This document shows positions 2,023 through 20,859 of a DNA stretch of 64,000 nt, piece after piece (position 1 is the first letter of the stretch; each line of letters opens with the position of its first letter). The DNA is from Polyangiales bacterium (GTDB lineage: Bacteria > Myxococcota_A > Polyangia > Polyangiales > Ga0077539). The DNA lies in NCBI GenBank assembly GCA_044229975.1, contig JBGARZ010000025.1, forward strand, positions 88,714 to 152,713. The letters are read 5' to 3'. The notes under the pieces are model-generated. The model worked only from the letters and a program-made list of their open reading frames with translations. It ran no database searches and was not told where the DNA came from. Made by a program: the position numbers and the translations under genes.

Positions 2023-2023
2023 G

Positions 2024-4608: not shown

Positions 4609-4613
4609 GGCGT

Positions 4614-5645: not shown

Positions 5646-6064
5646 GAACCGAGTTCCTTGCGGCGCAACTGGATCAGTCGTTCAAGCTCGTCCAACGCCG
5701 CGGAGTCCGCCGAGGAGACAGTCTCGACAAGGAGCGCCAGCGACTCTCGGCCCGCCGGCGCGCCGAGGCTCTCGAAGACCTCGCGCGCCGTGGATTGGAG
5801 GAACTCCTCCCGATCACCGCAGGTCGAGTAGAGGTAGCGCTTGCCGTCGCGCTCGCGGGTGAGGAGGCCCTTCTCGTGCAGCCGCACAAGCGTCGTCATC
5901 ACGGTCGTGTAGGCAACCTCGCGGCGCGTTTCGAGCACGACGAGGACGTCGCTGACCGCGAAGCGCCGCAGCTTGCGCGACCACACGATGTCCATGATCT
6001 CCGCCTCGAAGTCGTGGAGACGGATCGCGACACCGGTCTGCCCTGGCCGTAGGCGAAAGGTCAT
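5642..6064 (-). CDS. BlaI/MecI/CopY family transcriptional repressor
   Basis: EAEIMDIVW...AYTTVMTTLVRLHEKGLLTRERDGKRYLY winged-HTH motif; start at ATG 6064 preferred because an operator-like palindrome lies just upstream. Confidence 0.9.
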   Translation of the reverse strand: MTFRLRPGQTGVAIRLHDFEAEIMDIVWSRKLRRFAVSDVLVVLETRREVAYTTVMTTLVRLHEKGLLTRERDGKRYLYSTCGDREEFLQSTAREVFESLGAPAGRESLALLVETVSSADSAALDELERLIQLRRKELGS

Positions 6065-6076
6065 GCTCGGAACGGA

Positions 6077-6097
6077 TCTACTATGGTGAGTAGTAGA
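6077..6097. promoter_or_regulatory. Putative BlaI/CopY-family operator
   Basis: AT-rich palindrome TCTACTA-N7-TAGTAGA 13 bp upstream of the blaI-like ATG. Confidence 0.7.
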
Positions 6098-6140
6098 CTG
6101 CAACGTCGGCTGCGCGACGCGAGGTGTCCGCTCACTCCGA

Positions 6141-6722
6141 TCACGTAGCGACGCGTGCCCGCGTCCAGACCCACGCCCCTGCGCTCACCACCATGGCGCC
6201 GCCAAGGAGCCCGGCGAACATACCCAGGGCCTCGCCCAGGAACAGCCCGCTGCACCGCACCGACCCGATCGACACCACGCCAAGCAGCATCCCGACCCCG
6301 GCGCGCGCTCGCTGCCCTGCGTCGCCGCGACGCGGGAGGAGCGCCGCGAGCACCACGCCGAGCGCGACGCCGGCGAGGGCGCAGGTGCCGGGTCGGGCGC
6401 AGCAGTTCTCGCAGACCATCATCCCCGGCGCGCAGCATGGGCGGAGCAGGGACATCGGGAGCAGGAGCGTCGCGAGGCCGCCGAGCAGGCCCACCTGCGC
6501 GCCCCGCAACCACCACCCCCGCCGCCACCCCAGGAAGGTCCAGGCGAGGACGAGGGGTATCAACGTCAGGGGTTGCAGTGCGACGCCCGTCACGCGCGCC
6601 GCGAGAGCCGCGAGCACGAGTACGACGAGCGCGCGCACGAGGCCGTCCCGCGCGAGGCCCCACTCGTAAGCCCGGCGGGCGCGGGCTTCGAGGGACGACG
6701 GGGCGGTCGGATCAGGGGTCAT
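6141..6722 (-). CDS. Cys-rich multi-pass membrane protein, probable anti-sigma factor
   Basis: About six hydrophobic segments with a loop PCCAPGMMVCENCCARPGTC; overlaps the 3' end of an ECF sigma gene. Confidence 0.65.
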   Translation of the reverse strand: MTPDPTAPSSLEARARRAYEWGLARDGLVRALVVLVLAALAARVTGVALQPLTLIPLVLAWTFLGWRRGWWLRGAQVGLLGGLATLLLPMSLLRPCCAPGMMVCENCCARPGTCALAGVALGVVLAALLPRRGDAGQRARAGVGMLLGVVSIGSVRCSGLFLGEALGMFAGLLGGAMVVSAGAWVWTRARVAT

Positions 6723-7248
6723 GGTCACCTCCCAGGAGGGCGCGGATTCGTGCGTAGGCGCGAGACAGTCGCTTGCGGTACGTGGCGGGAGCGATCGGCG
6801 GAGGAGCCGCCTCCCCGAGGAGGACGGCGACGGCCTCGGCCGATGTCGGGTCGAGCGCGTCCACGCATTGCTGGAGCGCCCGGCGCAGTTCGTGGTCGGC
6901 GAGCGCGTCGTCCGCCTGGGCTTCCGCGTTCGGGTGGTGCTCCGGCACGGCGCTCTCGACGGTGCGGGTGCGGCGGAGCTCAGCACGGACCTCGTTGGCC
7001 ACCACGGCGTAGAACCAGGGCAACACCGGGCGGCCGGGGGTGAAGGCGGTGGCGCGGGTGAAGAGCTTGAGCATGGCGGCCTGTGCGACCTCATCAGCGC
7101 GTGCGGGCTCCAAGCGTCGACCGGCCGCCCGGAGAGCGCGCGGGTGGAGCGCGCGGAACAGGGGCGTGAACGCTCCGCGCTCGCCCTCGCAAAGGCGGAC
7201 CATCAGGTCGTCGAGCTCGGCCTCCGAGGCTTCGCGGGGCGGAGGCAC
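6712..7248 (-). CDS. ECF sigma-70 factor
   Basis: Region 2 (AFTPLFRALHPRA, ADEVAQAAMLKL, PWFYAVVANEVR) and region 4 (TYRKRLSRAYARIR). Confidence 0.85.
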   Translation of the reverse strand: MPPPREASEAELDDLMVRLCEGERGAFTPLFRALHPRALRAAGRRLEPARADEVAQAAMLKLFTRATAFTPGRPVLPWFYAVVANEVRAELRRTRTVESAVPEHHPNAEAQADDALADHELRRALQQCVDALDPTSAEAVAVLLGEAAPPPIAPATYRKRLSRAYARIRALLGGDHDP

Positions 7249-7260
7249 GCGGGCGTCGGG

Positions 7261-7443
7261 TCAGCCTGCGCGGTGGCGGCCCTGGCAGCAGGGCGAGCCG
7301 GGGTGGCAGCAGGGCGAGCCGGGGTAGCAGCAGTCGCTGGCGCCCCGGGCGGCGCGAACGGCGACAACCGTCGCCCCGAGGCCCGTGGTGAGGGAGAGAG
7401 CCCCGAGGATCATGAGGGTCCGGGGAGAGAGCAGCTTCATCAT
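7261..7443 (-). CDS. Small secreted Cys-rich peptide with three CC pairs (metal-binding or RiPP-precursor candidate)
   Basis: GGAGG RBS, hydrophobic signal-like N-terminus, core DCCYPGSPCCHPGSPCCQG encoded by a 21-bp tandem repeat; first gene of the sigma/anti-sigma operon. Confidence 0.7.
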   Translation of the reverse strand: MMKLLSPRTLMILGALSLTTGLGATVVAVRAARGASDCCYPGSPCCHPGSPCCQGRHRAG

Positions 7444-7467
7444 GGGTAGAGACCTCCTGTCCCCCTG

Positions 7468-7494
7468 CTAGCCGTTCGGGCGGCGGCCGTGACC
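7468..7494 (-). promoter_or_regulatory. Putative ECF promoter GGTCAC-N17-CTAG (copy 1)
   Basis: Same -35/-10-like elements and 17-bp spacer recur at 17949-17975 (-) and 18374-18400 (+); variant CTAA at 12059-12085 (+). Confidence 0.7.
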
Positions 7495-7534
7495 GACAAA
7501 GTGTCGCGCGGGCTGTTTCGGGCGTCGTGGTCGC

Positions 7535-8131
7535 CTACGTCGCCGGGGCGCAGGTGCAGTCGGCGCACCCGTCGTCCGCGCAGGACCCGCAGCAGGCCTG
7601 CACCCGCGCGCGGAGCGCCTCACGCGCCCGGAAGACCCGCACCGCGGCGTTGTTCGCGGTGATGCCCTCGGCCTCGGCGAAGTCCTTCACGCTCTGCCCC
7701 TCGACGGTCACCTGCCGGAGCGCCGCCGCGTACTCGGGCTTCATTGCGTCCGCCAGCCGCCCCACGCACGCGCAGGTGGTCGGCGCGAGGGCCGCCGGTG
7801 GCGGCGCCTCCGGCTCGTCCAGCTCCGCGGCCAGGGCGTCGAGCGCGCGGCCGTGGCTCGCGTCCCGGCGCCGACGGTCGATCACCGCGTTGCGCAGGAT
7901 CCGGTAGAACCACGCGCGCGACGACTCGTCCTGCCGGAGCGAGGCGCCGTGGGTCACGCTGCGGGCGTAGGCGTCCTGGAGGATGTCCTCGGCCGCGGCG
8001 CGGTCGCCGAGGCGGCGCTCCAGGAAGGCGAGGAAGCTCGCGCGCGCGGCGAGCAGCGACTCGGTGACGTGGGCGTCCACGGGCCGGAGTCTAGCGCCGG
8101 CGGCGGGTACGGAGGGGGTCACGGCGTCCAC
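7535..8131 (-). CDS. CorE-like metal-responsive ECF sigma factor with C-terminal Cys-rich domain
   Basis: AEDILQDAY, AWFYRILRNAVID, CxC (CAC) between regions 2 and 4, C-terminal CCGSCADDGCADCTC; start may be GTG 8080. Confidence 0.85.
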   Translation of the reverse strand: MDAVTPSVPAAGARLRPVDAHVTESLLAARASFLAFLERRLGDRAAAEDILQDAYARSVTHGASLRQDESSRAWFYRILRNAVIDRRRRDASHGRALDALAAELDEPEAPPPAALAPTTCACVGRLADAMKPEYAAALRQVTVEGQSVKDFAEAEGITANNAAVRVFRAREALRARVQACCGSCADDGCADCTCAPAT

Positions 8132-10470
8132 CGCCGCAGCCGAAGTGAGTTGAGCAGCACCGAGACGCTCGACAGCGACATCGCCGCGCTCGCGAAGACC
8201 GGCGAGAGCGACCAGCCCGTGACGGGTTCGAGTAGCCCCGCCGCGAGGGGGATGCCCACGAGGTTGTAGACGAAGGCCCAGAAGAGGTTCTGTCGGATCG
8301 TGCGCAGCGTGGCCCGCGCGAGCGCGAGCGCTGTCGGCACCGCCCCGACGCCGCCCCGCAGGATCGTCACGTCCGCGGCGGCCGCCGCGACGTCCGCGCC
8401 GCCGCCCATCGCCACGCCGAGGTCGGCCGCGGCCAACGCGGGCGCGTCGTTCACGCCGTCGCCCACCATCGCCACGTTGTGCCCCGCCGCGCGCAGCCGC
8501 GCCACCAGCACGGCCTTCTCCTCGGGGCGCACTTCCGCATGCACCTCGCCCACGCCCGCGGCGCGCGCGACCGTCAGCGCCGTCGCCCGCCGGTCGCCCG
8601 TCGCCATCGCCACGGAAACGCCCATCGCCGTCAACGCGGCCACGGTCGCGGCGGCCTCGGGGCGCACCGTGTCGGCCACCGTCACGAGGCCCGCGAGGGC
8701 GCCGTCGATGGCCACGAACACGGGCGTCTCACCCCGGCCCGCGGCCGCGGCTGCGGCGGGCTCCAGCGCGTCGGCGGCGACCCCCTGCGACGCCAGCCAG
8801 CGGGCCGTGCCGACAGACACGAGAGACGCGCCGACGCGCGACCGCACGCCCCCTCCAGGGGTCGCCGTGAAGTCCGTCGCGGTGACGGCTGTCAGGCCCT
8901 GCGCGGCGGCGCCCGCGACGATGGCGCGCGCCACGGGGTGTTCGCTCCCCGCCTCTGCGGCGGCCGCCAGCGCGAGCAGCTCGTCGTCGCGGCGGCCGCC
9001 TACGGGGAGTACCCGCGCGAGGGCCATCCGGCCCAGCGTGAGGGTGCCCGTCTTGTCGAAGAGCACCTGATCGATCTTCGAGGCGCGCTCCAGGGCCTCG
9101 CCGCCCTTCACCAGCAGCCCGAGGGCGGCCGCGCGGCTCGTGCCCACGGCGACGGCCGCGGGCGTGGCGAGCCCGAGCGCGCAGGGGCAGGCGATCACCA
9201 GCACGGCGACGGCCGCGGGCGTGGCGAGCCCGAGCGCGCAGGGGCAGGCGATCACCAGCACCGCGACGAAGTGCTCGACCGCGGCGGCCAGTCCGTCGGA
9301 CCCGCGCGGGAGCACCATCCACGCGGCGAAGGTGAGTCCGGCGAACGCGACCACCGTCGGCACGAACACCGCGCTCACCCGATCGGCGAGGCGGGCGATG
9401 GGTGCGCGCGTGCCCTGAGCTTCGGAGACGGCGTCCACGATGCGCGCGACGGCCGACTCGGTGCCCCGGCGCGTCACCTCGATCACGAGGCTGCCGCCCT
9501 CGACCAGCGTCCCGCCCTGCACGGGGTCGCCGGAGCCGCGCTCCACGGGCACGCTCTCGCCCGTGAGCATCGACTCGTCCACAGCGGCCTGACCCTCCAC
9601 GACCGTCCCGTCGGTCGGGACGCGCTGCCCGGGTCGCACGCGTACCCGGTCGCCCGGGAGCAGGGAGCCCACCGTCACCTCGATCTCGGCCCCGCCCCGC
9701 AGGCGCGTCGCGCTCGGCGGCTGGAGGGCCACGAGGCCGCGCACCGCGTCCCCGAGGCGCCGACGCGCGCGCCGCTCCAGGGCCTTGCCCAGCAGCATGA
9801 ACGCGACGATCGCCCCGGCCGCCTCGAAGTACACCGGGACGTGGCCGTGCTCGCCGTGCGGGAGCAGGCGCGGCACGAAGGTCACCGCCGCCGACCAGCC
9901 CCAGGCGGTGAGGGCGCCGAGCGCGACGAGGACGTTCATGTCGGCGCTCCGGTGGCGCAGCGCCGCGACCGCGAGGCGGAGGAAGCGGCGGCCGGGGCCG
10001 AAGACCACCGCCGTCGCCAGTGCGAGCTGGAGGTAGCGCCCGGCGGCGCCCGCGGTCCCCGGGATCGCGCCGTGCGACATCCCGACGACCAGGAGCGGCA
10101 CAGCCAGGGCCGCAGCCACGATCAGGTCGCGCCGGTCGCGGCGGGCGTCGGCTTCTTCGGCGGCGTCGATGCGTGCGAGTCGGGTCGCGCCATCGGGCGG
10201 GGCCTCGCCCGCCGCGGGCACGTCGGGGACCTCGTAGCCCGCCCCGCGAATCGCCTCGGCGAGGGCCTCCGGGGCCGTCGCGGTGGGGTCGTAGTCGATC
10301 GTCGCGTGTTGGCTGGCGAGGTTCACCCGCGCGTCGAGCACGCCCGGGGCGCGCCCGAGCACGCGCTCGATGCGGCCGACGCAGGCCGCGCAGGTCATGC
10401 CGAGCACCGCGAACTGCACGCGCGTCGGGTCGGCGGGAAGGGACAGGGGGTTCGCGAGCGAGGATGTCAT
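8119..10470 (-). CDS. copA: Copper-translocating P1B-type ATPase
   Basis: N-terminal GMTCAAC, TGES, CPC, DKTGTLT, SEHP, GDGVNDAP, YN and MSLSS Cu(I) motifs. Confidence 0.95.
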   Translation of the reverse strand: MTSSLANPLSLPADPTRVQFAVLGMTCAACVGRIERVLGRAPGVLDARVNLASQHATIDYDPTATAPEALAEAIRGAGYEVPDVPAAGEAPPDGATRLARIDAAEEADARRDRRDLIVAAALAVPLLVVGMSHGAIPGTAGAAGRYLQLALATAVVFGPGRRFLRLAVAALRHRSADMNVLVALGALTAWGWSAAVTFVPRLLPHGEHGHVPVYFEAAGAIVAFMLLGKALERRARRRLGDAVRGLVALQPPSATRLRGGAEIEVTVGSLLPGDRVRVRPGQRVPTDGTVVEGQAAVDESMLTGESVPVERGSGDPVQGGTLVEGGSLVIEVTRRGTESAVARIVDAVSEAQGTRAPIARLADRVSAVFVPTVVAFAGLTFAAWMVLPRGSDGLAAAVEHFVAVLVIACPCALGLATPAAVAVLVIACPCALGLATPAAVAVGTSRAAALGLLVKGGEALERASKIDQVLFDKTGTLTLGRMALARVLPVGGRRDDELLALAAAAEAGSEHPVARAIVAGAAAQGLTAVTATDFTATPGGGVRSRVGASLVSVGTARWLASQGVAADALEPAAAAAAGRGETPVFVAIDGALAGLVTVADTVRPEAAATVAALTAMGVSVAMATGDRRATALTVARAAGVGEVHAEVRPEEKAVLVARLRAAGHNVAMVGDGVNDAPALAAADLGVAMGGGADVAAAAADVTILRGGVGAVPTALALARATLRTIRQNLFWAFVYNLVGIPLAAGLLEPVTGWSLSPVFASAAMSLSSVSVLLNSLRLRRWTP
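9145..9261. repeat. Perfect 57-bp in-frame tandem duplication of the CPC transmembrane segment of copA
   Basis: Units 9145-9201 and 9202-9258 are identical; the protein reads AVLVIACPCALGLATPAAV twice. Confidence 0.95.
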
Positions 10471-10497
10471 GGGATTCGGCTCCGGTTCGATCGGGCC

Positions 10498-10523
10498 GAC
10501 GCAGCAGGGCGGGCTGGATTACA
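10498..10523 (-). promoter_or_regulatory. Putative ECF promoter TGTAA-N17-CGTC upstream of copA-corE
   Basis: Same motif and spacing at 11746-11771 and 12106-12131; CGTA variant at 22977-23002. Confidence 0.72.
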
Positions 10524-10569
10524 GTCGTCGTTCGTCGAGGGCGCGCGGTGCAAAGCTGATGGCAGCAGC

Positions 10570-11112
10570 TCAGTGCGCGGCGCCGTGGGTCGGCGGCGCC
10601 GTCGAAGTGAGGCGCCGCCACGTGGGCTCGTCAACGACCTGCTGGCGCCACGCGGCGTGGCAAGAGGTGCAGGTGCGGAGGGTGGCGCCGAGCTCGGTCA
10701 CGACCCGCGCGCGGTCCCGCTCGCGGGCCGCGACGCCGATGCGATCGGCCGTGTGGTGGAAGTTGAGCGCCTGCTCGGTAAAGCCCGGCGCGCCTGCCCC
10801 CATGTGGCTGCACTTCCGGCCCATCTGCTCGGAGTAGCCGAGCTGGGCCGCCGCCCGCTCGATCGCGGGGAAGTCTTCGACGGCAAGCGCCGCAACGATC
10901 TCCTGCACGGCGACGAGGTGACCCCGCATGTTCTGCTTCTGGTGGTTGGCCATCATTGGCAGCAGGGGAACGGCGTTGCGAGTGTCGAGGCGATCGAGCG
11001 CCTGCTGCGCCGACGGCTCGACCGGCGCGGCGGGCGCCGCGGCTCGAAGCCCCTCGGGCGCGCAGCCGGCGGCGGCGAGTGCGGCGGCAAGCAGCAGGAT
11101 CGTGCGGGTCAC
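10570..11112 (-). CDS. Lipoprotein c-type cytochrome (helical, cytochrome c'-like)
   Basis: Lipobox AAGC; single C-terminal CxxCH (CTSCH). Confidence 0.75.
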   Translation of the reverse strand: MTRTILLLAAALAAAGCAPEGLRAAAPAAPVEPSAQQALDRLDTRNAVPLLPMMANHQKQNMRGHLVAVQEIVAALAVEDFPAIERAAAQLGYSEQMGRKCSHMGAGAPGFTEQALNFHHTADRIGVAARERDRARVVTELGATLRTCTSCHAAWRQQVVDEPTWRRLTSTAPPTHGAAH

Positions 11113-11594
11113 TCTGTTTCCCCTTCGCCCTCGGAGGCCACAGTGGCAGGCAGCGCGTCGAGGGCGGCGACGAGGTGCCCCAGGGCCTCGACGACCTGAT
11201 CACGCCGTCCCTTGGGCACGGCAGCGAGCAACGCGCTGAACCGCGCGCCGCTGGCGACCTCGACCTCCCTCGCGAGAGTCTGACCGCGCTTCGTCAGGGT
11301 CACCCTCCGGCTGCGGGCGTCGTTCGCGTCCGCGTGCTGCCTGACATGGCCCGCCTCCACCATCTTCGCGCAGAGGCGGGCGACATTGCTCTTGTCGATG
11401 CAGAGCTCAGCGCCGAGGTCGCGCTGCGACACTTCGCCCTTCGAGAGCAGCACCATCAGCGCGTGCGCGTGCGCCACCGGCAGCGGCTTGCCGCACGGCG
11501 TCCGGTCGGTCGCGAGGGCGCCGAAGCGTCGAAACAACCGCTGCATGAGGCGGCGGAGCTCATCGGACTCCGCCATGTCAGGAGCCTTCGACAT
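11109..11594 (-). CDS. MarR family transcriptional regulator
   Basis: wHTH: SQRDLGAELCIDKSNVARL...DARSRRVTLTKRG; exact start uncertain (11576-11633). Confidence 0.88.
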   Translation of the reverse strand: MSKAPDMAESDELRRLMQRLFRRFGALATDRTPCGKPLPVAHAHALMVLLSKGEVSQRDLGAELCIDKSNVARLCAKMVEAGHVRQHADANDARSRRVTLTKRGQTLAREVEVASGARFSALLAAVPKGRRDQVVEALGHLVAALDALPATVASEGEGETE

Positions 11595-11617
11595 CGTGGC
11601 CGTGTCCGTAGTCGCAA

Positions 11618-11637
11618 ATGGTTGCGGTCGCAACTAT
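11618..11637. promoter_or_regulatory. Putative MarR operator palindrome
   Basis: ATGGTTGCG-GT-CGCAACTAT immediately upstream of the marR-like gene. Confidence 0.5.
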
Positions 11638-11745
11638 ATCAGCACGGTCGTCTTCTCCCCTTGGGATGGCGAGCCTGTCGCAGCCATGAGCTGGAGTTCC
11701 GTCATCGCCAACGCCCTCCGCCCGCGCCTGTGATGTCGATGCGGC

Positions 11746-11771
11746 TGTAAGGCGAGGAGGGGGACTGCGTC
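11746..11771 (+). promoter_or_regulatory. Putative ECF promoter TGTAA-N17-CGTC upstream of copZ
   Basis: GCTGTAA-ggcgaggagggggactg-CGTCTGCC. Confidence 0.72.
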
Positions 11772-11819
11772 TGCCTTGGTGCGAGCCGAAGCAACGCGGC
11801 CCGCAGGAGCGACGAAGCC

Positions 11820-12044
11820 ATGAACCCCACCGAGACCCTGCTCGACGTCCGCGGCATGAACTGCGGGTCGTGCGTCCGCCACATCTCCGAGGCCCTCGAC
11901 GCGCTCGACGGCGTCGAGGAGGTCTGCCCCTCGCTGCCCGACAAGACCGTTCTCGTCCGGCACGACCCGGCGCGGGTGAGCGCCGAGCAGCTCGCCGACG
12001 CGCTCACCGCCCGGGGCTACCCCGCCGCCGCGCGTGCCGCGTGA
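11820..12044 (+). CDS. copZ: HMA-domain copper chaperone
   Basis: 74 aa with GMNCGSC metal-binding motif; AGGAG RBS upstream. Confidence 0.9.
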   Translation: MNPTETLLDVRGMNCGSCVRHISEALDALDGVEEVCPSLPDKTVLVRHDPARVSAEQLADALTARGYPAAARAA

Positions 12045-12054
12045 ATCGACTCCG

Positions 12055-12101
12055 ACCGGGTCACAGGTCGGCCGCCCGGCCCTAAGAGCCTGTGACCCGG
12101 T
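12055..12101. repeat. 13-bp inverted repeat (possible copZ terminator or operator) overlapping a GGTCAC-N17-CTAA promoter-like motif
   Basis: ACCGGGTCACAGG (12055-12067) pairs with CCTGTGACCCGGT (12089-12101). Confidence 0.65.
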
Positions 12102-12105
12102 TCGC

Positions 12106-12131
12106 TGTAATCCCCACCCACCACGCGCGTC
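12106..12131 (+). promoter_or_regulatory. Putative ECF promoter TGTAA-N17-CGTC upstream of the lipoprotein-TolC-MCO operon
   Basis: GCTGTAA-tccccacccaccacgcg-CGTCTGCC. Confidence 0.72.
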
Positions 12132-12147
12132 TGCCGCCACGAAGCCC

Positions 12148-12408
12148 ATGAACCTCTTGATCCCACGCGTTCTCATCCTGGTCGGTGTGACCGCCCTCCC
12201 GCTCGGGTGCGGAGGACGCGAGGTGCCTGTGCGCTTCGGCGAGCAGTCCGCCCTCTCGTCGGGCGCTCGTGAGGCGCCGGTCGCTGACCCCACGGTGGCC
12301 CTCGCGGGCGACCCGCCCCTCCCGGGCGAGCCCACCGGGGCCTGGTCCGGCCTCGCGGCGGACGCGGGCGCCCCCCCTACCGGAGGAGGCCACGTCCATG
12401 CGCACTGA
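12148..12408 (+). CDS. Small lipoprotein with C-terminal His tail
   Basis: MNLLIPRVLILVGVTALPLGC signal/lipobox; ends GGGHVHAH; overlaps the TolC start. Confidence 0.6.
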   Translation: MNLLIPRVLILVGVTALPLGCGGREVPVRFGEQSALSSGAREAPVADPTVALAGDPPLPGEPTGAWSGLAADAGAPPTGGGHVHAH

Positions 12409-13828
12409 GCGCCTCCTGCCGGCCGCCTTGGCGCTGCTGCTGCCGCTCACCGGGTGCGCGACGACGTCGTTCTCCTCCGATCTGCGGCGCGTCGAGCAGC
12501 TCTCCCACTCGCCCATCCCCCTACGCGTCGCGGACAACCCCCCCGAAGACCACGACCCGGCGGTCACGCGGGAGGTCCTCGCCCGCCCGCTCACGGCCGA
12601 CGCCGCGGTGGGGGTGGCCTTCCGCAACAACCGGCACCTGCGCGCGTCGCTGCGCGATCTCGGCGTAGCGCGTGGCTGGCTCGCCCAGGCTGGCACGCTC
12701 CCCAACCCCGCCATCGAGTTCGACGTGCGCTACCAGACTGACCGCTCGCAGCCCCTCCAGGGCGACGTGCGCCTGGAGTTCGGGCTGACGCGAGCGATCC
12801 TCACGACGCAGCGGGCGGGCCTCGCGCGGGCGGAGCTGGAGACGGCGCAGGCGCGCGTCGCAGGGACGGTGCTGGAGACGGGCTACGCGGTGCGCGTCGC
12901 CTTCTACGCGGTGCAAGCCTCCGAGGAGCGGCTCGCGGCCGCCCAGCAGGCGCTGGACGCCTTCGCGGCTGCGCGTGACGCGGCCCGCGCGCTCCACGCG
13001 GCGGGCAACATCAGGACACTCGACCTCTCGGTGCAGGAGGCGGCCTACGAGACCGCGCGCATCACGGTGGCGGAGATCGAGCTGGAGCGACTCGACCGCC
13101 GCGAGCACCTCCAGCGCCTGTTGGGGCTCCACGGCGACGCCACCGAGTGGACCCTCGCGGAGAGCCTACCCCCCGCGCCCGAGGCCCTCTCGCTGGAGGC
13201 GATGACCGAGACGCGCGCGCTCGAAGCCAGCCTCGACCTCGCGGCCCAGCGCGCGAACCTCCAGGCCCTCGCCCGGCGCGTCGGCCTCAGCCGGGCCGAG
13301 GGGTGGCTGCCCGACATCACGGTGGACGCGCACGCCGAACAAGACGGCAACTCCGTGGAGGTCGGCGGCGGGGCGCGTGTCACGCTCCCGATCTTCGACC
13401 AGCGTCGGGGGGCCACGGCCGCCTATGGTGCGCAGTTCGACGCCGCGCTTGAGCGCTACTACGCCAGCGCCGTGGACCTGCGCTCAGCCCTGCGCTCGGC
13501 CCGCAACCGCCTGCGCTCGGCGCACGCCCGCACACGGCAGTACGACGCCGTCATCGTACCAGCGCGCGAGCGTGTGCTGCGCGAGACGCTGCTCCAGTAC
13601 AACGCCATGCAGGTCTCGGTCTTCCAGCTGCTTGAGGCACGGCGCGAGCTGCTCGACGCCACGCTCCGCCGCGCCGAAATCCGCCGCGAGTTCTGGACCG
13701 CCACCGCGGGCACCGTGGCCCTCTTCGCCGGGCGCCAGGTGGGCGCGGCGGAGCACACATCCGATGCCACCGAGTCCATGTCCGCCACGTCCATGGGCGC
13801 GAGCGGTGCGTCCGCAGGAGGCCATTGA
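12398..13828 (+). CDS. TolC family outer-membrane protein (copper-resistance type)
   Basis: Lipobox LTGC, GTLPNP, LPIFDQRRG, YNAMQVSVFQLLEARRE; GGAGG RBS. Confidence 0.87.
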   Translation: MRTERLLPAALALLLPLTGCATTSFSSDLRRVEQLSHSPIPLRVADNPPEDHDPAVTREVLARPLTADAAVGVAFRNNRHLRASLRDLGVARGWLAQAGTLPNPAIEFDVRYQTDRSQPLQGDVRLEFGLTRAILTTQRAGLARAELETAQARVAGTVLETGYAVRVAFYAVQASEERLAAAQQALDAFAAARDAARALHAAGNIRTLDLSVQEAAYETARITVAEIELERLDRREHLQRLLGLHGDATEWTLAESLPPAPEALSLEAMTETRALEASLDLAAQRANLQALARRVGLSRAEGWLPDITVDAHAEQDGNSVEVGGGARVTLPIFDQRRGATAAYGAQFDAALERYYASAVDLRSALRSARNRLRSAHARTRQYDAVIVPARERVLRETLLQYNAMQVSVFQLLEARRELLDATLRRAEIRREFWTATAGTVALFAGRQVGAAEHTSDATESMSATSMGASGASAGGH

Positions 13829-13832
13829 AACC

Positions 13833-15194
13833 ATGAACCGACGATCCTTTCTCCAAGCGGGCAGTGCGGCGACTGCGCTGGGGCTCATGACCCGTGCGGA
13901 GCGGGCGGAGGCGCAGACCCACGAGGGTCACGGCGCGCCCGATGCCCCGGCGACGGGGCAGACACCACCGCCGCCAGCGACCTCCGCCGCGATCGCACGT
14001 CGCTTCCCCGCGGGGCAGCCCGGAGTGACGGTGCCGAACGGGGGCACTCTCCCTCTCCGCCTGGTGGACGGGGTGAAGGTCGGCCACCTGGTGGTCGAGG
14101 CGTTCCCCAACGAGTTCGCGCCGGGGCTCACCGCGGAGGTGTGGGGCTACAACGGCACGACGCCGGGACCGGTGATCGAGCTGGTCGAGGGCGACCGTCT
14201 GCGGATGTACGTGACCAACCGGCTACCCGAGCCGACGACGGTGCATTGGCACGGCATCGTTCTGCCCAATGGCATGGACGGCGTGAGCGGCCTCAACCAA
14301 CGCCCCATCCCGCCGGGCGAGACGTGGATGTACGAGTTCACGCTCCGGCACCCGGGCACGTTCATGTACCACTCGCACTTCGACGAGATGACCCAGATCG
14401 CGCTCGGCGCGGTGGGCATGATCGTCGTCCACCCGCGCCAGGCGCGCGGCCCGCGGGTCGATCGGGACTTCGTGCTGATGGCGCACGAGTGGAAGATCGA
14501 GGCGGGTGCTCACCGCCCCGACCCCAACGCGATGAACGACTTCAACGTCCTCACCTTCAACGGCAAGGCGTTCCCGAGCACGGCGCCGCTGCTCGTGGGG
14601 AAGGGCGAGCGGGTGCGCATCCGCCTGGGCAACCTCGGGCCGATGGACCACCACCCGATCCACATCCACGGCCTCTGGTTCCACGTCACGGCGACCGACG
14701 GCGGCTACGTGCCGGCGAGCGCGCAGAAGCCCGAGACGACGGTGCTGGTGCCGGTGGGAGCGACGCGGGTGATCGAGTTCGTGCCGCCCGAGTCAGGCGA
14801 CTGGGCGATGCACTGCCACATGACCCATCACGTCATGATGCAGATGGCTCATGGCCTGCCGAACATGGTGGGGATGAACCCGGCGGCGTTGGAGCGACGC
14901 ATGAGCCGGGTGATGCCCGAGTACATGACCATGGGGCACAGGGGCATGGGCGGCATGGGCGAGATGCGGATGGAGATCCCGCCCAACAGCGCCCCGATGC
15001 GCGGTGGCATGGGGCCGCACTCGTACATCGACATGGGCGGGATGTTCACCATCCTGAAGGTGCGCGACGACGTCACCACCGCCGACCCGGCGGGGTGGTA
15101 CCAGGCGCCCGCCGGGACGGTGCCCACGGCGGCACAAGAGGCGCGGCTGCGGGCTGACGGCATCGACGTGGCGCGGACCTATCGGCCGGGGTGA
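13833..15194 (+). CDS. Tat-exported multicopper oxidase with Met-rich C-terminus
   Basis: MNRRSFLQ twin-arginine signal; HWHG, MYHSH, HPIHIHG and HCHMTHH copper motifs. Confidence 0.92.
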   Translation: MNRRSFLQAGSAATALGLMTRAERAEAQTHEGHGAPDAPATGQTPPPPATSAAIARRFPAGQPGVTVPNGGTLPLRLVDGVKVGHLVVEAFPNEFAPGLTAEVWGYNGTTPGPVIELVEGDRLRMYVTNRLPEPTTVHWHGIVLPNGMDGVSGLNQRPIPPGETWMYEFTLRHPGTFMYHSHFDEMTQIALGAVGMIVVHPRQARGPRVDRDFVLMAHEWKIEAGAHRPDPNAMNDFNVLTFNGKAFPSTAPLLVGKGERVRIRLGNLGPMDHHPIHIHGLWFHVTATDGGYVPASAQKPETTVLVPVGATRVIEFVPPESGDWAMHCHMTHHVMMQMAHGLPNMVGMNPAALERRMSRVMPEYMTMGHRGMGGMGEMRMEIPPNSAPMRGGMGPHSYIDMGGMFTILKVRDDVTTADPAGWYQAPAGTVPTAAQEARLRADGIDVARTYRPG

Positions 15195-15264
15195 GTGGGC
15201 ACGATGCGACGCATGGTGAGCTCAACCGCTACGGGCCTGTCGATCGCTCGCGGTCCGCCGGGCC

Positions 15265-15753
15265 TCAGCCGACGCGCCTCATGCGTTTTGCGTAGATGAC
15301 CTTGTCGTCTCCGTCTGCGTAGAAGTCCGGCACGCGTCCGCACGCGGAGTACCCGTGCTTCTCGTAGAAGCGCCGCGCCCGCGCCGTCGGTGGCAAGGCG
15401 CTCGTCTCGATCACGAGAATCCGACCACCCCGGGTGCTCACTTCTGACTCGACGGAGCGCAACAGCGCATCGCCGATGCCCTGACCGTGATGGGCAGGGG
15501 CCGCGCCGATCCACCAGAGGTCCCACACGCGGTCGGCCTTCTCGTTCGAAGAGAAGTACGCCCATCCGAGCGGCGGTCAGGCCGGACCCTCGGACCACAC
15601 CCACGCCAGATGATCGGGACCCAAGCGACCGGCGTGAATCTCATCGAGCGTCGCCCTGAGCAGGAGGTCCGCTTCGTCGGCTTGGAAGAGCCCGGTCGAA
15701 ACGGCCAGCGAGACCAGGGCGGGTGTGTCGTCGGGGGCAGCGGGGCGCATCAT
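15265..15753 (-). pseudogene. GNAT acetyltransferase interrupted by an in-frame TGA at 15577-15579
   Basis: The two ORF-track fragments are in one frame: ...WSEGPA*PPLGWAYFS...WIGAAPAHHGQGIG...RRFYEKHGY. Confidence 0.8.
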
Positions 15754-15858
15754 GGCCGCGACTACGGAACCCAATCACCGGCAGTTACACGCGATCGCTG
15801 CTTGGAGTCGCGTGGTGCGCCGAGACGATCGCGGGAGGGCCCTACCGACAGGGGCCAG

Positions 15859-16443
15859 TCAGGGAAGGACGCGGACCACGCCCGCCATCCCGACGTGTCC
15901 GTGGGTGTTGCAGTAGAACGGGTAGAACCCGGCGCCGGGGAAGGTCACCGCGTAGGTCGTCCCCACGCGCTGCGCGTCGATGGGGCTCGGGGTTGTGGCG
16001 CCCGCGCTCGACCCGTGCGGCACGCCGGGGATCAGCGGGTGCGTGGTGAAGCTCATCGAGAAGGTCACCGACTGCCCGGTACGGATGGTGAGACAGCGCG
16101 GCGTGTAGCCCGTGGTGCCGCGGGGTACCACCGTGCGCTCGGCGTCGTCGGCGCTGCGGTCTACGTAGTTCGCGGCCCGGCAGTCGTTGAGCAGGGGCAC
16201 TACCGTCGAAGCGTCCGCAACTGTCCCCGCGTCGGTCGCGGCATCCTGGTCGGTGGTCGCGACGTCGACGGCTGTCGGCTGGTCCGTGGCGGTGCCGACG
16301 TCGGTCGTCCCAACGTCCGAAGTCCCGACGTCGGCCGCGTCGTGACCCTCGTGGGCGGCCGCGTCGGTCGTGTCGTGTGCCATGTCGCCGCAGCCGGCGA
16401 ACAGAGGAAACAGGGCGAGGACGAGGGTCATTCGAGCGGGCAT
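15859..16443 (-). CDS. Lipoprotein with C-terminal plastocyanin/cupredoxin (type 1 copper) domain
   Basis: Lipobox FAGC, Asp/Thr-rich linker, His...YCNTHGHVGM ligand set. Confidence 0.85.
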   Translation of the reverse strand: MPARMTLVLALFPLFAGCGDMAHDTTDAAAHEGHDAADVGTSDVGTTDVGTATDQPTAVDVATTDQDAATDAGTVADASTVVPLLNDCRAANYVDRSADDAERTVVPRGTTGYTPRCLTIRTGQSVTFSMSFTTHPLIPGVPHGSSAGATTPSPIDAQRVGTTYAVTFPGAGFYPFYCNTHGHVGMAGVVRVLP

Positions 16444-16478
16444 CGAGGGGCCTTTCCGGTGCGCAGTGGGGTCGTGGC

Positions 16479-17903
16479 TCAGGGCTCCACGCGGACGGTG
16501 GCCATCATCCCGTGCTCGATGTGCTCAAGGATGTGGCAGTGGTACATCCAGTGGCCGGGGCGCTCGTCGGGGCGGAACGCGATGCGCACCCGCTCCTTGC
16601 CACGCAGCTGGATCGTGTCCTCCCACGAGCGCTCGGCCTCGTCCGCGCCGTTGCGCGACACGACCTGGAAGAAGAACCCGTGCAGGTGGAACGGGTGCTC
16701 CATCTCGCTCGCGTTGACGAGGTCCCACACCTCGGTGTTGCCCACGCGCGCGACGACGTCCGGCACGTCCGGGTAGGACCGGTCGTTGATGGTGAACACC
16801 ACCTGCTCGCGGTCGCGATCGATGTACTCGTTGAAGGTCACCGTGCGCGGCGCGATGCCTGCCGTGACCAGCGGCTCGACCCGTATGCGGGGCGCGGGGG
16901 CGGCGAGTGTTGGCAACGCCGAGTCGGGCGCGTAGCGGAGCCGCAGGACGTCCGCCGCCTCGGTGAGACCAGCGCCGTGGCCGCGGGCGTAGGGGAGGTT
17001 GCGCAGGGGCGCGGTCGTGCCCGGGCTGCCGACGCCGTCCACCAGGACGTCGAGGCGATCGCCAGGGACGAGAAAGAGCTCGTCGGACGTGCGTGGTGTC
17101 GCGACGGACCCTCCGTCGGTCCCCACCACGGTGAAGCGGTGCCCCGGGAGAGCGAGGCGGTAGAAGCGGGCGCTGCCGGCGTTCACGACGCGCCACCGCT
17201 GCCGCTGGCCCGCGCGGATCGGCAGCTCCGCGCCCGCGCGTCCGTTGACGAGCGAGACGGGACCCTCCCTGCCGCTGTGCTGCTCGACGAGGTCCCCGGT
17301 GGGCGCGATCTCCCCGTCCGACCCGACCAGGAGGTCGTCGAGCATGACGACGCCCTCGACGTCTGCGCGGGGTTCATGGTCGCCGCGCACCACGACCGCG
17401 CCGTAGAGGCCGCGCTCCATCTGTACGCTCTCGGTGACGTGCGGGTGGTACCAGAAGGTCCCCGCGTCCGGAACGGTGAAGCGGTACTCGAAGCTCGCGC
17501 CGGGGGCGACGGGCGGCTGCGAGTGGGGGCTGCCGTCCATCGACGCAGGCACCCGCACGCCGTGCCAGTGGATCGTCGTCGGCTGGTCGAGCCGGTTGGT
17601 GAAGTGCACGACCACGGTGTCCCCGGCGCGCGCCTCGATCGTGGGCCCGGGGACCATGCCGTTGTAGGTCATCGCTCGGACGCGCCGACCCGGCGAGTAC
17701 TCCCACTGACCGAAGCGCGCTTCGAGGTCGATCTCGACGACGCGCGGATCGGGGTTGCGGTCGGCGGCGGGCTCGACGCGGAGCGCCGCGGCCCAGGGGT
17801 CGGGGCCGGTGCGAGGCGCAGGCGGTGCCTCGGGGGCGTCGCCGCAGCCGACAGCTACGAACAGCGCGGAGAGGGTCCAGCGGAGGTGGGGCGCGAGAGG
17901 CAT
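16479..17903 (-). CDS. Three-domain multicopper oxidase (CueO/Cuo-like lipoprotein)
   Basis: HWHG, WYHPH, HPFHLHG, HCHILEHIEHGMM; lipobox AVGC. Confidence 0.93.
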   Translation of the reverse strand: MPLAPHLRWTLSALFVAVGCGDAPEAPPAPRTGPDPWAAALRVEPAADRNPDPRVVEIDLEARFGQWEYSPGRRVRAMTYNGMVPGPTIEARAGDTVVVHFTNRLDQPTTIHWHGVRVPASMDGSPHSQPPVAPGASFEYRFTVPDAGTFWYHPHVTESVQMERGLYGAVVVRGDHEPRADVEGVVMLDDLLVGSDGEIAPTGDLVEQHSGREGPVSLVNGRAGAELPIRAGQRQRWRVVNAGSARFYRLALPGHRFTVVGTDGGSVATPRTSDELFLVPGDRLDVLVDGVGSPGTTAPLRNLPYARGHGAGLTEAADVLRLRYAPDSALPTLAAPAPRIRVEPLVTAGIAPRTVTFNEYIDRDREQVVFTINDRSYPDVPDVVARVGNTEVWDLVNASEMEHPFHLHGFFFQVVSRNGADEAERSWEDTIQLRGKERVRIAFRPDERPGHWMYHCHILEHIEHGMMATVRVEP

Positions 17904-17948
17904 GGTCCTCGGTCGGTTTTGGGGTTGGCTTGCACGCCGCCCGACCTA

Positions 17949-17975
17949 CTAGCCGCCAGGGCCGGAGGTGTGACC
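17949..17975 (-). promoter_or_regulatory. Putative ECF promoter GGTCAC-N17-CTAG (copy 2)
   Basis: Upstream of the MCO-cupredoxin operon. Confidence 0.7.
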
Positions 17976-18053
17976 CGCGTCGCTCCACAACGCGCACTTT
18001 GCGCCTCGTCTCAAGCCTTGAGCGCGCTCTCCCGCCGCGCGAGTATCGACGCC

Positions 18054-18326
18054 ATGTCGCTCGCTCCTCACGCTCACCTGCTCACCTTCTACGGCGCGGC
18101 CCTCAACGAGTTCGGCATGCCGAAGGACTTCCACCGCTACCAGATCTTCGTCGGCCCCCTCGTCGTGACGGGAGGCACCGTGTACGTGGCATCCATCGCC
18201 GCAGCGACCGACAGCCCGACGCCAAACCCGAAGGAGTACTCCTCCAAGGCCGACACGACCGACGCGTTCGAACAGGCCAGGCGAGCGCTCGCGGCGCTCC
18301 ACCCTGGTCTGACCTGCGTCGGCTGA
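18054..18326 (+). CDS. Hypothetical protein (90 aa)
   Basis: ATG-started ORF with GC3-rich codons between two divergent promoters; no recognised family. Confidence 0.5.
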   Translation: MSLAPHAHLLTFYGAALNEFGMPKDFHRYQIFVGPLVVTGGTVYVASIAAATDSPTPNPKEYSSKADTTDAFEQARRALAALHPGLTCVG

Positions 18327-18373
18327 CGTCACCGGTGGTCCGCGGTCCGTCCTCGGCAAAGTGGCTCTGGACG

Positions 18374-18400
18374 GGTCACGAAACGTCGCGGCGGAACTAG
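18374..18400 (+). promoter_or_regulatory. Putative ECF promoter GGTCAC-N17-CTAG (copy 3)
   Basis: Upstream of the MNIO precursor operon. Confidence 0.7.
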
Positions 18401-18460
18401 ACAGGGATCCGCCGAAGTACCCGCGGCCGTCCGCCGCGCGCCCGAAGGAGCGAAGACCTG

Positions 18461-18892
18461 ATGAACAAAGAGACCCGAGCGAAGTTGCTGGTGATGGTAT
18501 CCGCGGCCTTTGGGGTCGCCGCGGTGGAGGGCTGCGCGAGCAACCCGTCCATGATGGCGCAGCCGCCCGCAAGCTCGCAGTCGGCTGACCCCGCACCCGC
18601 CACGACGCCTGCGCCCGCCGCGCAGGTCGGCACCGGTCCGACGCAGACCCCGAGCTCGACGGCCCCTGCGCCCGCCTCGGCCCCACAGGGAGCGGCCACG
18701 GGTCAGGCCATGAGCTGCGGCCAGGACGGCAACTGCGGCGCGCACATGGGCTCCTCGTCGTCGCCCGCACCGGGCACCACGGCGGCCCAGCCGACCCCGA
18801 CGGCGGCCCCGACGCCGGCCACCACACCGACGACGGCTCCCGCCACGGCTCCAGCAACGGCGCGGCCCCACCAACACAACCACGCACACTGA
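18461..18892 (+). CDS. Putative MNIO-modified RiPP precursor (lipoprotein-like, SCGQDGNCG core)
   Basis: AAGGAG RBS, signal with VEGC, Pro/Thr/Ala-rich linkers flanking MSCGQDGNCGAHM, His tail; 3 bp before the DUF692 gene. Confidence 0.75.
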   Translation: MNKETRAKLLVMVSAAFGVAAVEGCASNPSMMAQPPASSQSADPAPATTPAPAAQVGTGPTQTPSSTAPAPASAPQGAATGQAMSCGQDGNCGAHMGSSSSPAPGTTAAQPTPTAAPTPATTPTTAPATAPATARPHQHNHAH

Positions 18893-18895
18893 TCG

Positions 18896-19729
18896 ATGGC
18901 GCACGTCGAGGGCGTCGGCCTGGGCCTGCGGGCCCCGCTGTTTCGCGACCTGATGTCGCGGGCGCCCGCGGCGTTGCGCTGGGTCGAGGTCTCTCCCGAG
19001 AACCATCTCGGGCGCGGCGGCTTCTTCGAGGCGATGCTGGCGGAGACCCGCGCGCGCTACCCGGTGGTGACGCACGGCGTAAGCCTCGGGCTCGGCGACC
19101 GCGAGCCGCCAGCGCGCGACCTGCTGCGCGCGATGCGGGGCTTCCTCGAAGCCGTGCAGACCCCCTGGCACAGCGATCATCTGTGCTTCGGCGCGGTCGA
19201 CGGCGCCCACCTCCACGACCTCCTTCCCCTACCGTTGACCGAAGAGAGCGTCGGTCGTGTGGTGGACCGGGTTCGGCTGCTCGAAGACGCGCTCGGTCTC
19301 CCCATCGCCGTCGAGAACATCTCCTGGTACGCGCACCCCGGCGAGGCGGAGATGGACGAGGCCGACTTCCTCGGCGAGATCACCGCGCGCAGCGGCGCCC
19401 TCCTCCTGCTCGACGTCAACAACGCCTACGTCAACGCGCGCAACCGCGGGGGAGACGCGCGGGAGTTCATCCGTCGCATCCCGGCCGACCGTGTGGTGCA
19501 GATGCACGTCGCCGGGCACCTCGTGGCCGCCGACGGGTTTCGCCTCGATACGCACGGCGAGGCTGTCTGCGACGATGTGTACGGGCTGCTCGCGTACACC
19601 CTGTCGCGCACTGGGCCCGTGCCGGTTCTGTTGGAGAGAGACGGCGGCTTTCCCCCGTGGGACGAGCTCGTCGCGGAGCTCGAACGACTCGACGCCATCG
19701 TCCGCGCTTCAACACAGGCAGCGCCTTGA
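18896..19729 (+). CDS. DUF692 family multinuclear non-heme iron oxidase (MNIO)
   Basis: GVGLGLR, EVSPEN, HGVSLGLG, SDHLC, DLLPLP, ENI, LLDVNNAYVN, MHVAGH, DTHG and LLERD motifs. Confidence 0.95.
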   Translation: MAHVEGVGLGLRAPLFRDLMSRAPAALRWVEVSPENHLGRGGFFEAMLAETRARYPVVTHGVSLGLGDREPPARDLLRAMRGFLEAVQTPWHSDHLCFGAVDGAHLHDLLPLPLTEESVGRVVDRVRLLEDALGLPIAVENISWYAHPGEAEMDEADFLGEITARSGALLLLDVNNAYVNARNRGGDAREFIRRIPADRVVQMHVAGHLVAADGFRLDTHGEAVCDDVYGLLAYTLSRTGPVPVLLERDGGFPPWDELVAELERLDAIVRASTQAAP

Positions 19730-20457
19730 GCGGGCTCGACGCGCACCAGCGGGCCATCGCCCGGCTCACACTTGGGGCCGAACTCGACGAGGCGTCGCTG
19801 GCCTCGCTAGGCGGCGACCGCGTTCGGTGGCTGGTGTACCGCGACCTCGTGCGCAACCGGCTCTGGTCGCTGCTGCTCGAAGCGCTGCCGCGCACCTTCG
19901 CGGCGGCCGGCAGCGCGCGCTTCGGGGGGTGGTTTACCCGCTACCTCGACGAGGAGGCGCCGCGCACGCACTTCGTCCGCGACGTGGCGCCGGCCTTCGG
20001 TCGGTGGGTGCGCGCGGCGGAGGCCGAGGCCCTGGCGTCACCGTCGCCGTGGCTGCCCGAGGCGCTGTCCCTCGACCTGGCCGAGCATCACGTCGGCCTC
20101 TCGGCAGCGCGCGTCGACGCATCGCGACTCACCGACTTCGCGATGGACCTCCCCGCGGCGCTCGATCCGACACACCAGCGGCTGCGCCTCTCGTGGACCC
20201 CGGAGGGCGCGCCCGATGCGCGGGCACTGCTGCTGTTTCGTCACCCGGAGCGCCACTCTGTGGAGACGCTCGCGCTCACCCCGATGGCGGCCGACGTGCT
20301 CGACGCGATGGACGACGGGGCGACGCCCGCGGCCGAGGCCGTGCGCGCGGTGCTGGCACGCTACGACGTGGTCGCGGGGTCGGCGTTTGTGGAGAGCTTC
20401 GCGGGCCTGCTCGCCGAACTGATGGAGCGCGGTGTCTTGAGGGGCTCGCTGCGGTAG
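19726..20457 (+). CDS. DUF2063-like MNIO partner (RiPP recognition) protein
   Basis: TTG start overlapping the MNIO stop; YRDLVRNRLWSLLLEALPRT and PWLPEALSLDLAE resemble DUF2063. Confidence 0.8.
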   Translation: MSGLDAHQRAIARLTLGAELDEASLASLGGDRVRWLVYRDLVRNRLWSLLLEALPRTFAAAGSARFGGWFTRYLDEEAPRTHFVRDVAPAFGRWVRAAEAEALASPSPWLPEALSLDLAEHHVGLSAARVDASRLTDFAMDLPAALDPTHQRLRLSWTPEGAPDARALLLFRHPERHSVETLALTPMAADVLDAMDDGATPAAEAVRAVLARYDVVAGSAFVESFAGLLAELMERGVLRGSLR

Positions 20458-20461
20458 GGCG

Positions 20462-20815
20462 TTACATGGCGTGGCGGAAGGCCGTGAGGTCGACGCGCAC
20501 GCGGGTGTCGTTGCTCACCTTGAGCCGCAGCAGCGCCGGAACGCCGATCCCGTAGTCGGTGGGCGACAGGTTGGGAAGGTCGACGGTGAAGCGCCCGGCG
20601 GTCGAGGTGGAGATGCCGTCGACGGTTTCGAGCGGTGCGTCGGAGGTGAAGAGTACGCGCGACTCGCCGTTCGTGCGGAGGTCGAAGCGCTGCACGCCGG
20701 TGGGCGCGGCGGCGGGCGCCATGGTGGGAGGCGTCGGCGGTGTCTACGCGCCGAGCGGAGCGGACATCGAGAGGAGACTGATCGCGACGAGCGAAGCGAG
20801 AGGGCTGATCTTCAA
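20462..20815 (-). pseudogene. YceI family protein, nonsense codon plus apparent internal deletion
   Basis: GGAGGT RBS, signal peptide, in-frame TAG at 20744-20746; SDAPLETVDG joined almost directly to DYGIGVPALLRLKVSN. Confidence 0.65.
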
Positions 20816-20859
20816 GGGCGACCTCCGACGGTCTTGGTGGTGGGCGCGGTCGACGTCCG

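Follow-up and report, generated by a model that had tools for sequence, protein, structure and literature searches.

The subject of this analysis is a 64,000-nt stretch of the genome of a Polyangiales bacterium (the window), part of a larger metal-resistance region on contig C31 whose gene identities were judged by eye. It carries three exact copies of the two-block element GGTCAC-N17-CTAG, which is probably the -35/-10 promoter read by the extracytoplasmic function (ECF) sigma factor encoded at 6712-7248. Judged from comparisons between sequences, this sigma would transcribe a small metal-handling regulon besides its own operon of three genes, and a membrane protein with a cysteine loop would bind it and keep it inactive until metal or thiol stress. 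The periplasmic cysteines would sense the signal, by analogy with NrsF of Caulobacter, and the signal may be copper rather than another thiophilic metal. The regulon in the island would be the peptide-sigma-membrane, multicopper oxidase (MCO)-cupredoxin, and MNIO (peptide-modifying) operons. The sites and the first two operons are as follows.

7468-7494, minus strand: predicted promoter A (-35 GGTCAC, N17, -10 CTAG), heading the peptide-sigma-membrane operon and likely autoregulatory.
17949-17975, minus strand: exact copy of promoter A, preceding the MCO-cupredoxin operon; the top-scoring site genome-wide.
18374-18400, plus strand: exact copy of promoter A, preceding the MNIO operon; the weakest exact site (13.2 bits, against 14.7 for the lowest training site).
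12059-12085, plus strand: degenerate promoter A, GGTCAC-N17-CTAA, ahead of the TolC-MCO operon and inside an inverted repeat (12055-12101); secondary at best.
7261-7443, minus strand: 60-aa peptide with a hydrophobic N-terminal segment, then three Cys-Cys pairs (CCxPGxxCC repeats).
6712-7248, minus strand: ECF sigma factor with a complete sigma2; its sigma4 is ~7 residues short and carries an invariant RKR within the recognition helix.
6141-6722, minus strand: 193-aa six-helix membrane protein, putative anti-sigma factor, overlapping the sigma stop codon; Cys 96, 97, 108, 114, and 157 predicted to be periplasmic.
16479-17903, minus strand: three-domain MCO with a lipoprotein-type N-terminus.
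15859-16443, minus strand: cupredoxin lipoprotein (Copper-bind, PF00127).

The original prediction had reported these four sites, and all were found at the positions given; the genome has a single GGTCAC-N17-CTAA. As also claimed there, all four sites are intergenic and correctly oriented. Each faces a start codon, at distances of 24, 45, 60, and 62 nt (ATG at 7443, 17903, 18461, and 12148, respectively). The exact motif occurred on average 0.10 times in 100 dinucleotide shuffles of the window, at most once in any of them, and three or more copies were seen in 0 of 100. The remaining three exact copies of the genome are in a paralogous island on contig C29. All six copies are therefore within the window island or its C29 paralogue, ahead of the same three genes, and it is the placement of the six copies, rather than their number, that is not due to chance. 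Between the MNIO promoters of the window and C29, the spacer has diverged and both elements are kept.

The motif was present in 26 of 41 relatives, including genomes without a match to the sigma. Since its presence in a whole genome does not discriminate, positional tests were used. A reversed-pattern control (GATC for CTAG) was discarded as uninformative, because GATC is not depleted as CTAG is and the counts of the control often exceeded those of the motif. The family of sigma 6712-7248 was found in 15 of 41 genomes (this genome and 40 relatives), giving 20 loci, and GTCAC-N17/18-CTAG lies 130-330 nt upstream in 18 of them. One of the two exceptions has CTAC, and the other is a frameshifted copy with 3 nt lost from the spacer. 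A scan of GTDB gave 73 sigma loci, 72 of them with upstream DNA; L100, which had none, was set aside, as was the frameshifted copy (L021/L060), and L124, an ordinary full-length ECF sigma, was kept within the 72. Exact GTCAC-N17-CTAG was present within 500 nt upstream of 42 of these 72 homologues, with N18 in two and N14 in one, and was upstream of none of the 72 on the opposite strand. The near clade, to which the window sigma is close, has the exact N17 motif at 41 of 47 loci, and the misses are N14, CTAA, TTAG, CTAC, CCAG, and one locus without a site. The distant sub-clade (mostly Acidobacteriota and other myxobacteria) keeps GTCAC and has GCCTA in 29/29 promoters, with N18 in 22 and otherwise N17; these promoters were selected by requiring GTCAC and CTA, and the GC before CTA was not required. 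GTCAC-N13..22-CTAR was absent from 350 kb around 20 homologues of the second, CorE-like sigma of the window (20 of the 21 non-own matches within the phylum). The motif follows the 6712-7248 family across genomes and sub-clades and not the neighboring CorE-like sigma, and the most likely reader of the three exact sites is thus sigma 6712-7248 or its 85%-identical C29 twin.

In the frameshifted copy (G002:C10:48451), both the sigma and the membrane genes are frameshifted, and its genome has two intact copies.

The sigma itself has the domain content of an ECF sigma, sigma2 and sigma4 only. Sigma70_r2 scored above its cut-off, and both the profile and the model matched solved ECF sigmas across the two domains. 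The Pfam sigma4 models gave no match because of a deletion in sigma4. The distance between the sigma4 anchors is 22-29 residues in 62/62 family members, compared with 33 in 26 of 31 other ECF sigmas of the genome, and alignments of the family to AlgU and SigK have the same gap. According to the model, the sigma4.2 helix-turn-helix has a loop (144-153) in place of its first helix; the recognition helix with the RKR comes next. Neither a C-terminal Cys-rich domain nor a CxC linker, which would mark a CorE sigma, was found in 6712-7248.

Among the sequences compared, the order promoter, six-cysteine peptide, sigma, six-helix membrane protein is conserved. The membrane gene is immediately downstream of 57 of 67 full-length sigmas, and on this coupling and the architecture the protein at 6141-6722 is the putative anti-sigma of 6712-7248. 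Its family counts 656 clusters at 50% identity. No Pfam family scored above cut-off in 14 + 59 members, and PF06532 (NrsF/DUF1109) was not matched; NrsF of this genome and of one relative passed the same cut-off. Profile comparison with five myxobacterial NrsF proteins gave a probability of 0.1%, with a shallow template. The model (pLDDT 76) has six membrane-length helices, and in a fold search of 48,161 chains the best Z was 7.8, with none above the helical-bundle background, a result that does not show a new fold and is compatible with NrsF kinship. By hydropathy and K/R bias, the N-terminus, loop 2, and loop 4 are predicted to be cytoplasmic, and Cys 96, 97, 107, 108, 114, and 157 would then lie outside; Cys 96, 97, 108, 114, and 157 are conserved at 98-100%.

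Peptides of the family have 55-75 aa, a hydrophobic N-terminal part, and three pairs of cysteines (CC); they are present at 44 of 46 near-clade sigma loci. There are 562 homologues, and among the 120 matches listed all are unnamed or hypothetical and none has a Pfam domain. The peptide would bind metal. It was also considered as a substrate of the MNIO, which was rejected because it accompanies the sigma and not the MNIO. In the near clade CCxPG repeats are found in both the peptide and the membrane-protein loop, and in the distant clade cysteines are sparser in both.

The strict pattern KGTCACR-N16-CTAGNA was searched in 32 sigma-bearing genomes outside the genus. There were 51 sites; 27 precede a sigma unit and 24 are elsewhere, and metal genes follow 14 of these 24. 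Behind these 14 are an operon of heavy-metal-binding-domain (HMBD) protein, lipoprotein, and TolC, with or without MCO (four genomes), TolC with a heavy-metal RND pump downstream (three genomes, two of them near-identical and one cut by a contig end), and TRASH-like lipoproteins (three genomes), as well as a cupredoxin, a truncated homologue of the window MCO, a thioredoxin-domain protein whose N-terminus has CxxC, and proteins resembling YbjQ. In other genomes, sites come as close as 3-8 nt to start codons. In one further genome (L089), the MCO-cupredoxin genes are placed immediately behind the membrane gene. Judged by gene content, MCO and efflux targets recur across genera.

Several observations weigh against this promoter assignment. 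Enrichment over background, which the original prediction had named as a check, stands only in part: there are six exact copies in the 10.0-Mb genome and 1.1 expected from the element frequencies, but spacers of 12-23 other than 17 give 0-4 copies each genome-wide, and six is modestly above that. The MNIO promoter has a lower score than any training site; among the 17 genome hits above 13 bits it comes 16th, and 10 of these 17 fall outside the islands. The short sigma4 could imply an atypical reading of the -35 element. Many loci come from metagenome-assembled genomes of related organisms, and the relatives and GTDB sets overlap, so that the counts are not independent. No metal gene follows 10 of the 24 strict sites that are not autoregulatory, and most of these 10 are apparently due to chance. 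Moreover, most sigma loci have no copper gene in their flanks (copA-like at 10/73, MCO at 4/73), and copper specificity of the circuit is weakly founded.

The third operon of the proposed regulon is the MNIO operon:

18461-18892, plus strand: putative MNIO precursor with a lipobox-like VEGC and one GQAxSCG...CG motif (2-4 repeats in paralogues).
18896-19729, plus strand: MNIO (PF05114), below the NCBIfam cut-offs (BufB 271 of 310 bits, HvfB 272 of 360).
19726-20457, plus strand: DUF2063/RiPP recognition element (RRE) partner protein.

This operon is the basis of another reading, by which the sigma pair would be a dedicated regulator of MNIO (bufferin-like) genes, playing here the part that SigF/NrsF has in Caulobacter. 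PMC11626156 describes buf operons under SigF control, and the exact motif is ahead of the MNIO precursor in six operons of four genomes of the genus (by coordinates; five of the six were read directly). The link is limited to these six operons. No MNIO gene was found at the 73 sigma loci, whose flanks reached up to 10 kb but were often shorter. Outside the genus, 30 of the 59 MNIO matches in sigma-bearing genomes were covered (four with <400 nt upstream), and none of these 30 loci has the motif, even in relaxed forms. Sister MNIO operons are directly behind sigF-nrsF pairs at four loci in three genomes of the genus (Pfam confirmed NrsF at one of these loci and in the separate pair of this genome). 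Three sister precursors, among them the C19 copy of this genome, have GAAACC-N16/17-CGTA ahead of them. A dedicated MNIO regulator is thus unlikely, and at the level of the family the sequences already contradict it. The original prediction had tied the pair to the MNIO cluster as its dedicated regulator, which did not hold, and the ECF/anti-sigma control of bufferin operons that it cited as a parallel points instead to SigF/NrsF (ECF16), which is encoded separately with its own promoter type.

Because the sister operons follow SigF/NrsF, we took the window MNIO operon as a local recruit of the 6712-7248 sigma. Its MNIO shares 92% identity with the C19 copy and is nested within the clade of MNIOs with SigF-type promoters (support 100/100), yet the operon is preceded by the island-type promoter, GGTCAC-N17-CTAG. 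The simplest reading would be a mosaic operon that switched regulons, in one direction or the other. The precursor has three cysteines and no Pfam or NCBIfam match, and neither DUF2282 nor the 6 or 12 cysteines of a bufferin precursor was found in it. MNIO and DUF2063 are both present, and the precursor may work like a bufferin or an oxazolin. Oxazolin/Buf_EGKCG and DAG-RiPP precursors, as described in PMC13056109 and PMC12452194, likewise go with MNIO and DUF2063 and have a lipoprotein-type signal and short xxxCG motifs. The window operon differs from them in having GQAxSCG rather than EGKCG, no DoxX gene, and an MNIO below the BufB and HvfB cut-offs, and its modification is putative.

The segment 18891-23002 is ~90% identical to the C19 locus, pointing to recombination between both loci. 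At 20462-20860 (minus strand) there is a truncated remnant of a gene that is intact at the C19 locus (YceI-like by eye). TGTAAC-N16-CGTA is ahead of a DUF7482-Rieske operon at 22977-23002 (minus strand) and is kept in the C19 copy; it is intermediate between the CorE-type and SigF-type consensus. Between the divergent promoters, 18054-18326 (plus strand) is a 90-aa open reading frame; at the corresponding place the C29 island carries another, longer gene.

SigF/NrsF (ECF16) of Caulobacter is described as regulating bufferin operons (PMC11626156), with two periplasmic cysteines of NrsF keeping SigF membrane-bound (PMC3511200). The module in the window resembles it in working (PMC3511200, PMC11626156): behind the ECF sigma comes a membrane protein of six helices whose conserved cysteines face the periplasm (by predicted topology here), and the small regulon includes the sigma itself, has a heavy-metal context, and counts an MNIO-DUF2063 operon among its targets. 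However, it fails two of the three defining features, the NrsF match (0/14 and 0/59 members) and the promoter, which is GGTCAC-N17-CTAG and not GTAACC-N16-CGAA/CGTA. The membrane protein has 5-6 cysteines instead of two, sigma4 is shorter, a six-Cys peptide heads the operon, and a true SigF/NrsF pair is encoded separately in the genome. GTAACC-N16-CG(A/T)A was not found in the window; it precedes the genome's own sigF with N17.

It is quite improbable that the sites are read mainly by a third, distant paralogue of the sigma (G000:C31:52733-53263). This paralogue shares GGTCAC, and one of its own promoters has N17 (GGTCAC-N17-CTAC). The GCCTA of its clade, however, is at 0/4 window sites, and all four sites score higher on the near-clade model (14-27 bits) than on the far-clade model (3-12 bits), while both promoters flanking the paralogue score higher on the far-clade model. 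The paralogue is part of a sigma/membrane pair at G000:C31:52210-53373, with divergent promoters, beside a MerR-type gene. One of these promoters precedes a small Cys-rich membrane protein, MerT-like by eye.

Still less probable is a reading of the motif as the target of a separate transcription factor and not as a sigma-dependent promoter. BlaI- and MarR-type regulators are nearby, and the 12059 copy is within an inverted repeat. Against this are the non-palindromic two-block form, the fixed 17-nt spacer, the strict strand and distance, and the co-variation with sigma sub-clades; in addition, a scan of 5600-21000 found no sigma70-type promoter.

That the CorE-like sigma 7535-8131, encoded directly upstream of the 7494 site, reads the sites is hardly credible, for all its proximity and the MCO and TolC genes listed for the Myxococcus xanthus CorE regulon (PMC3107203), since there are zero copies of the motif around the 20 CorE homologues, a corE-like match is near only 4/73 sigma-family loci, and the C27 locus of this genome (corE, copA, TolC-MCO, and no sigma of the 6712-7248 family) has only TGTAA-N17-CGTC.

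The window has two ECF sigmas in tandem, 6712-7248 and the CorE-like 7535-8131, and the latter had been omitted from the original prediction. Its surroundings are:

7535-8131, minus strand: CorE-like ECF sigma with a CxC linker and a C-terminal CxxCAxxxCxxCxC domain; the true start is probably downstream of 8131.
8119-10470, minus strand: CopA-type P1B ATPase, upstream of corE in the same operon.
10498-10523, minus strand: predicted promoter C (TGTAA-N17-CGTC), ahead of copA-corE.
11746-11771, plus strand: predicted promoter C, ahead of copZ (11820-12044).
12106-12131, plus strand: predicted promoter C, CorE-type, directly ahead of the lipoprotein-TolC-MCO operon, between the 12059 site and the start codon.
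12148-12408, 12398-13828, and 13833-15194, plus strand: small lipoprotein, TolC-type outer efflux protein (OEP), and two-domain Tat MCO, respectively.

CorE/CorE2 of M. xanthus (ECF44, now ECF238) describes this sigma well. It has the Cys-rich tail, the CxC linker, the C181/C184/A185/C189/C192/C194 spacing, and the metal-gene context of CorE; its best NCBIfam match is SigZ, below cut-off. Alanine at the tail position is given as the mark of a copper-type CorE (PMC4937300), and the tail of 7535-8131 has alanine there. Sigma 6712-7248 differs from CorE also in having a membrane partner. There are 23 copies of TGTAA-N17-CGTC around the 20 CorE homologues, compared with 0-2 at other spacers, and TGTAA-N17-CGT(C/A) is found in 16/20 CorE loci. 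The genes behind the motif, copA, a heavy-metal-associated (HMA) protein, and OEP-MCO, match the CorE targets described in PMC3107203. The comparison of promoter C with the CorE promoter is with a text description alone (AAC at -35, G 16-18 nt later). The CorE-like sigma, sensing in the cytoplasm, likely drives copA, copZ, and TolC-MCO from TGTAA-N17-CGTC.

For the TolC-MCO operon, this bears on the 12059 site. That site scores 16.6 bits, the seventh-best in the genome. In four other genomes a perfect GGTCAC-N17-CTAG would drive the lipoprotein-TolC-MCO operon (in L069 also just after copZ), which favors the proposal that 12059 serves the 6712-7248 sigma; the closer CorE-type promoter at 12106-12131 does not. 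CTAA was found once among natural autoregulatory sites (L072). The 12059 position has GTAG in two of five island copies (C29 and G002), and TGTAA-N17-CGTC is between the 12059-type site and the start codon in 5/5. The operon may therefore be mainly CorE-driven, with a possible weaker second input from 12059, so that it may receive both inputs. The claim that all four sites form the regulon of 6712-7248 is borne out where the motif tracks the sigma family and its sub-clade variant, and falls short at TolC-MCO.

A perfect 13-bp inverted repeat (12055-12067/12089-12101), present in three of the five island copies, has the 12059 site as its left arm. The 12055-12101 hairpin (-37.5 kcal/mol) was considered as an intrinsic terminator and rejected, as it has no U-run, the scan did not call it, and two of five island copies lack it.

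We compared the module with other ECF groups. ECF41, ECF103, ECF250, and ECF288 share a predicted -35 of TGTCAC(A) in the supplement of PMC7826278; their -10 elements (CGTC, TCT, GTTATATA, and TGTCTAAT) are unlike CTAG, and these groups have C-terminal extensions or single-helix anti-sigmas and are from other taxa. CTAG, CCTA, or GCTA is not given as a -10 element in the accessible text of this 2021 classification supplement, and the groups described there with six-helix anti-sigmas differ in taxa or promoter. ECF210 (Sorangium, Sandaracinus, and Chondromyces; promoters "not conserved") is a possible assignment, the groups being compared by description. In the literature, largely openly accessible papers, no described ECF group with a GGTCAC-N17-CTAG promoter was found; relevant reviews are PMC6851896 and PMC11626156. 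Apparently, a sigma/membrane-sensor/peptide module with its own promoter and a shortened sigma4 is undescribed so far.

We lean slightly towards a broader proposal. Sigma 6712-7248 would belong to an unnamed ECF group of Myxococcota and Acidobacteriota, reading a conserved -35 element with half a helix-turn-helix, together with a new family of membrane anti-sigmas with a Cys loop and a co-regulated, exported peptide that is metallothionein-like and has CCxPG repeats resembling the sensor loop. It would form a metal circuit that senses in the periplasm, beside CorE and SigF, and the MNIO RiPP (peptide made by the ribosome and modified after translation) operon would have been captured from SigF by promoter exchange. 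The module (promoter, sigma, putative sensor, and putative effector peptide) is complete and testable for a family without annotation, and a cultured host of the sigma family is on record, Sorangium sp. So ce1128 (L070). That a sigma4.2 helix is lost throughout the family while the -35 element is fully conserved is relevant to DNA recognition by ECF sigmas, and the promoter could be used as a search tag for myxobacterial metal-handling genes. In the island, three ECF systems (6712-7248, CorE, and SigF) would divide the copper genes, with an MNIO RiPP operon shifting between regulons. TGTAA-N17-CGTC would be a family-wide consensus for CorE-type promoters, which the text of the 2021 classification calls "not conserved" (PMC7826278).

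Three further observations concern the neighboring genes. Downstream of the sigma operon, 1-6064 (minus strand) encodes a BlaI/BlaR-like pair and then a TolC-membrane fusion-efflux operon, with no copy of either promoter motif. At 10570-11594 (minus strand), and only in this island copy, there are genes for a cytochrome c'-like lipoprotein and for a MarR regulator whose sequence includes a CxxxxxxxxH/C-rich segment. Finally, copA has a 57-nt in-frame tandem duplication over its CPC transmembrane motif (9145-9268), which is absent from the C29 copy and is either real or an assembly artefact.

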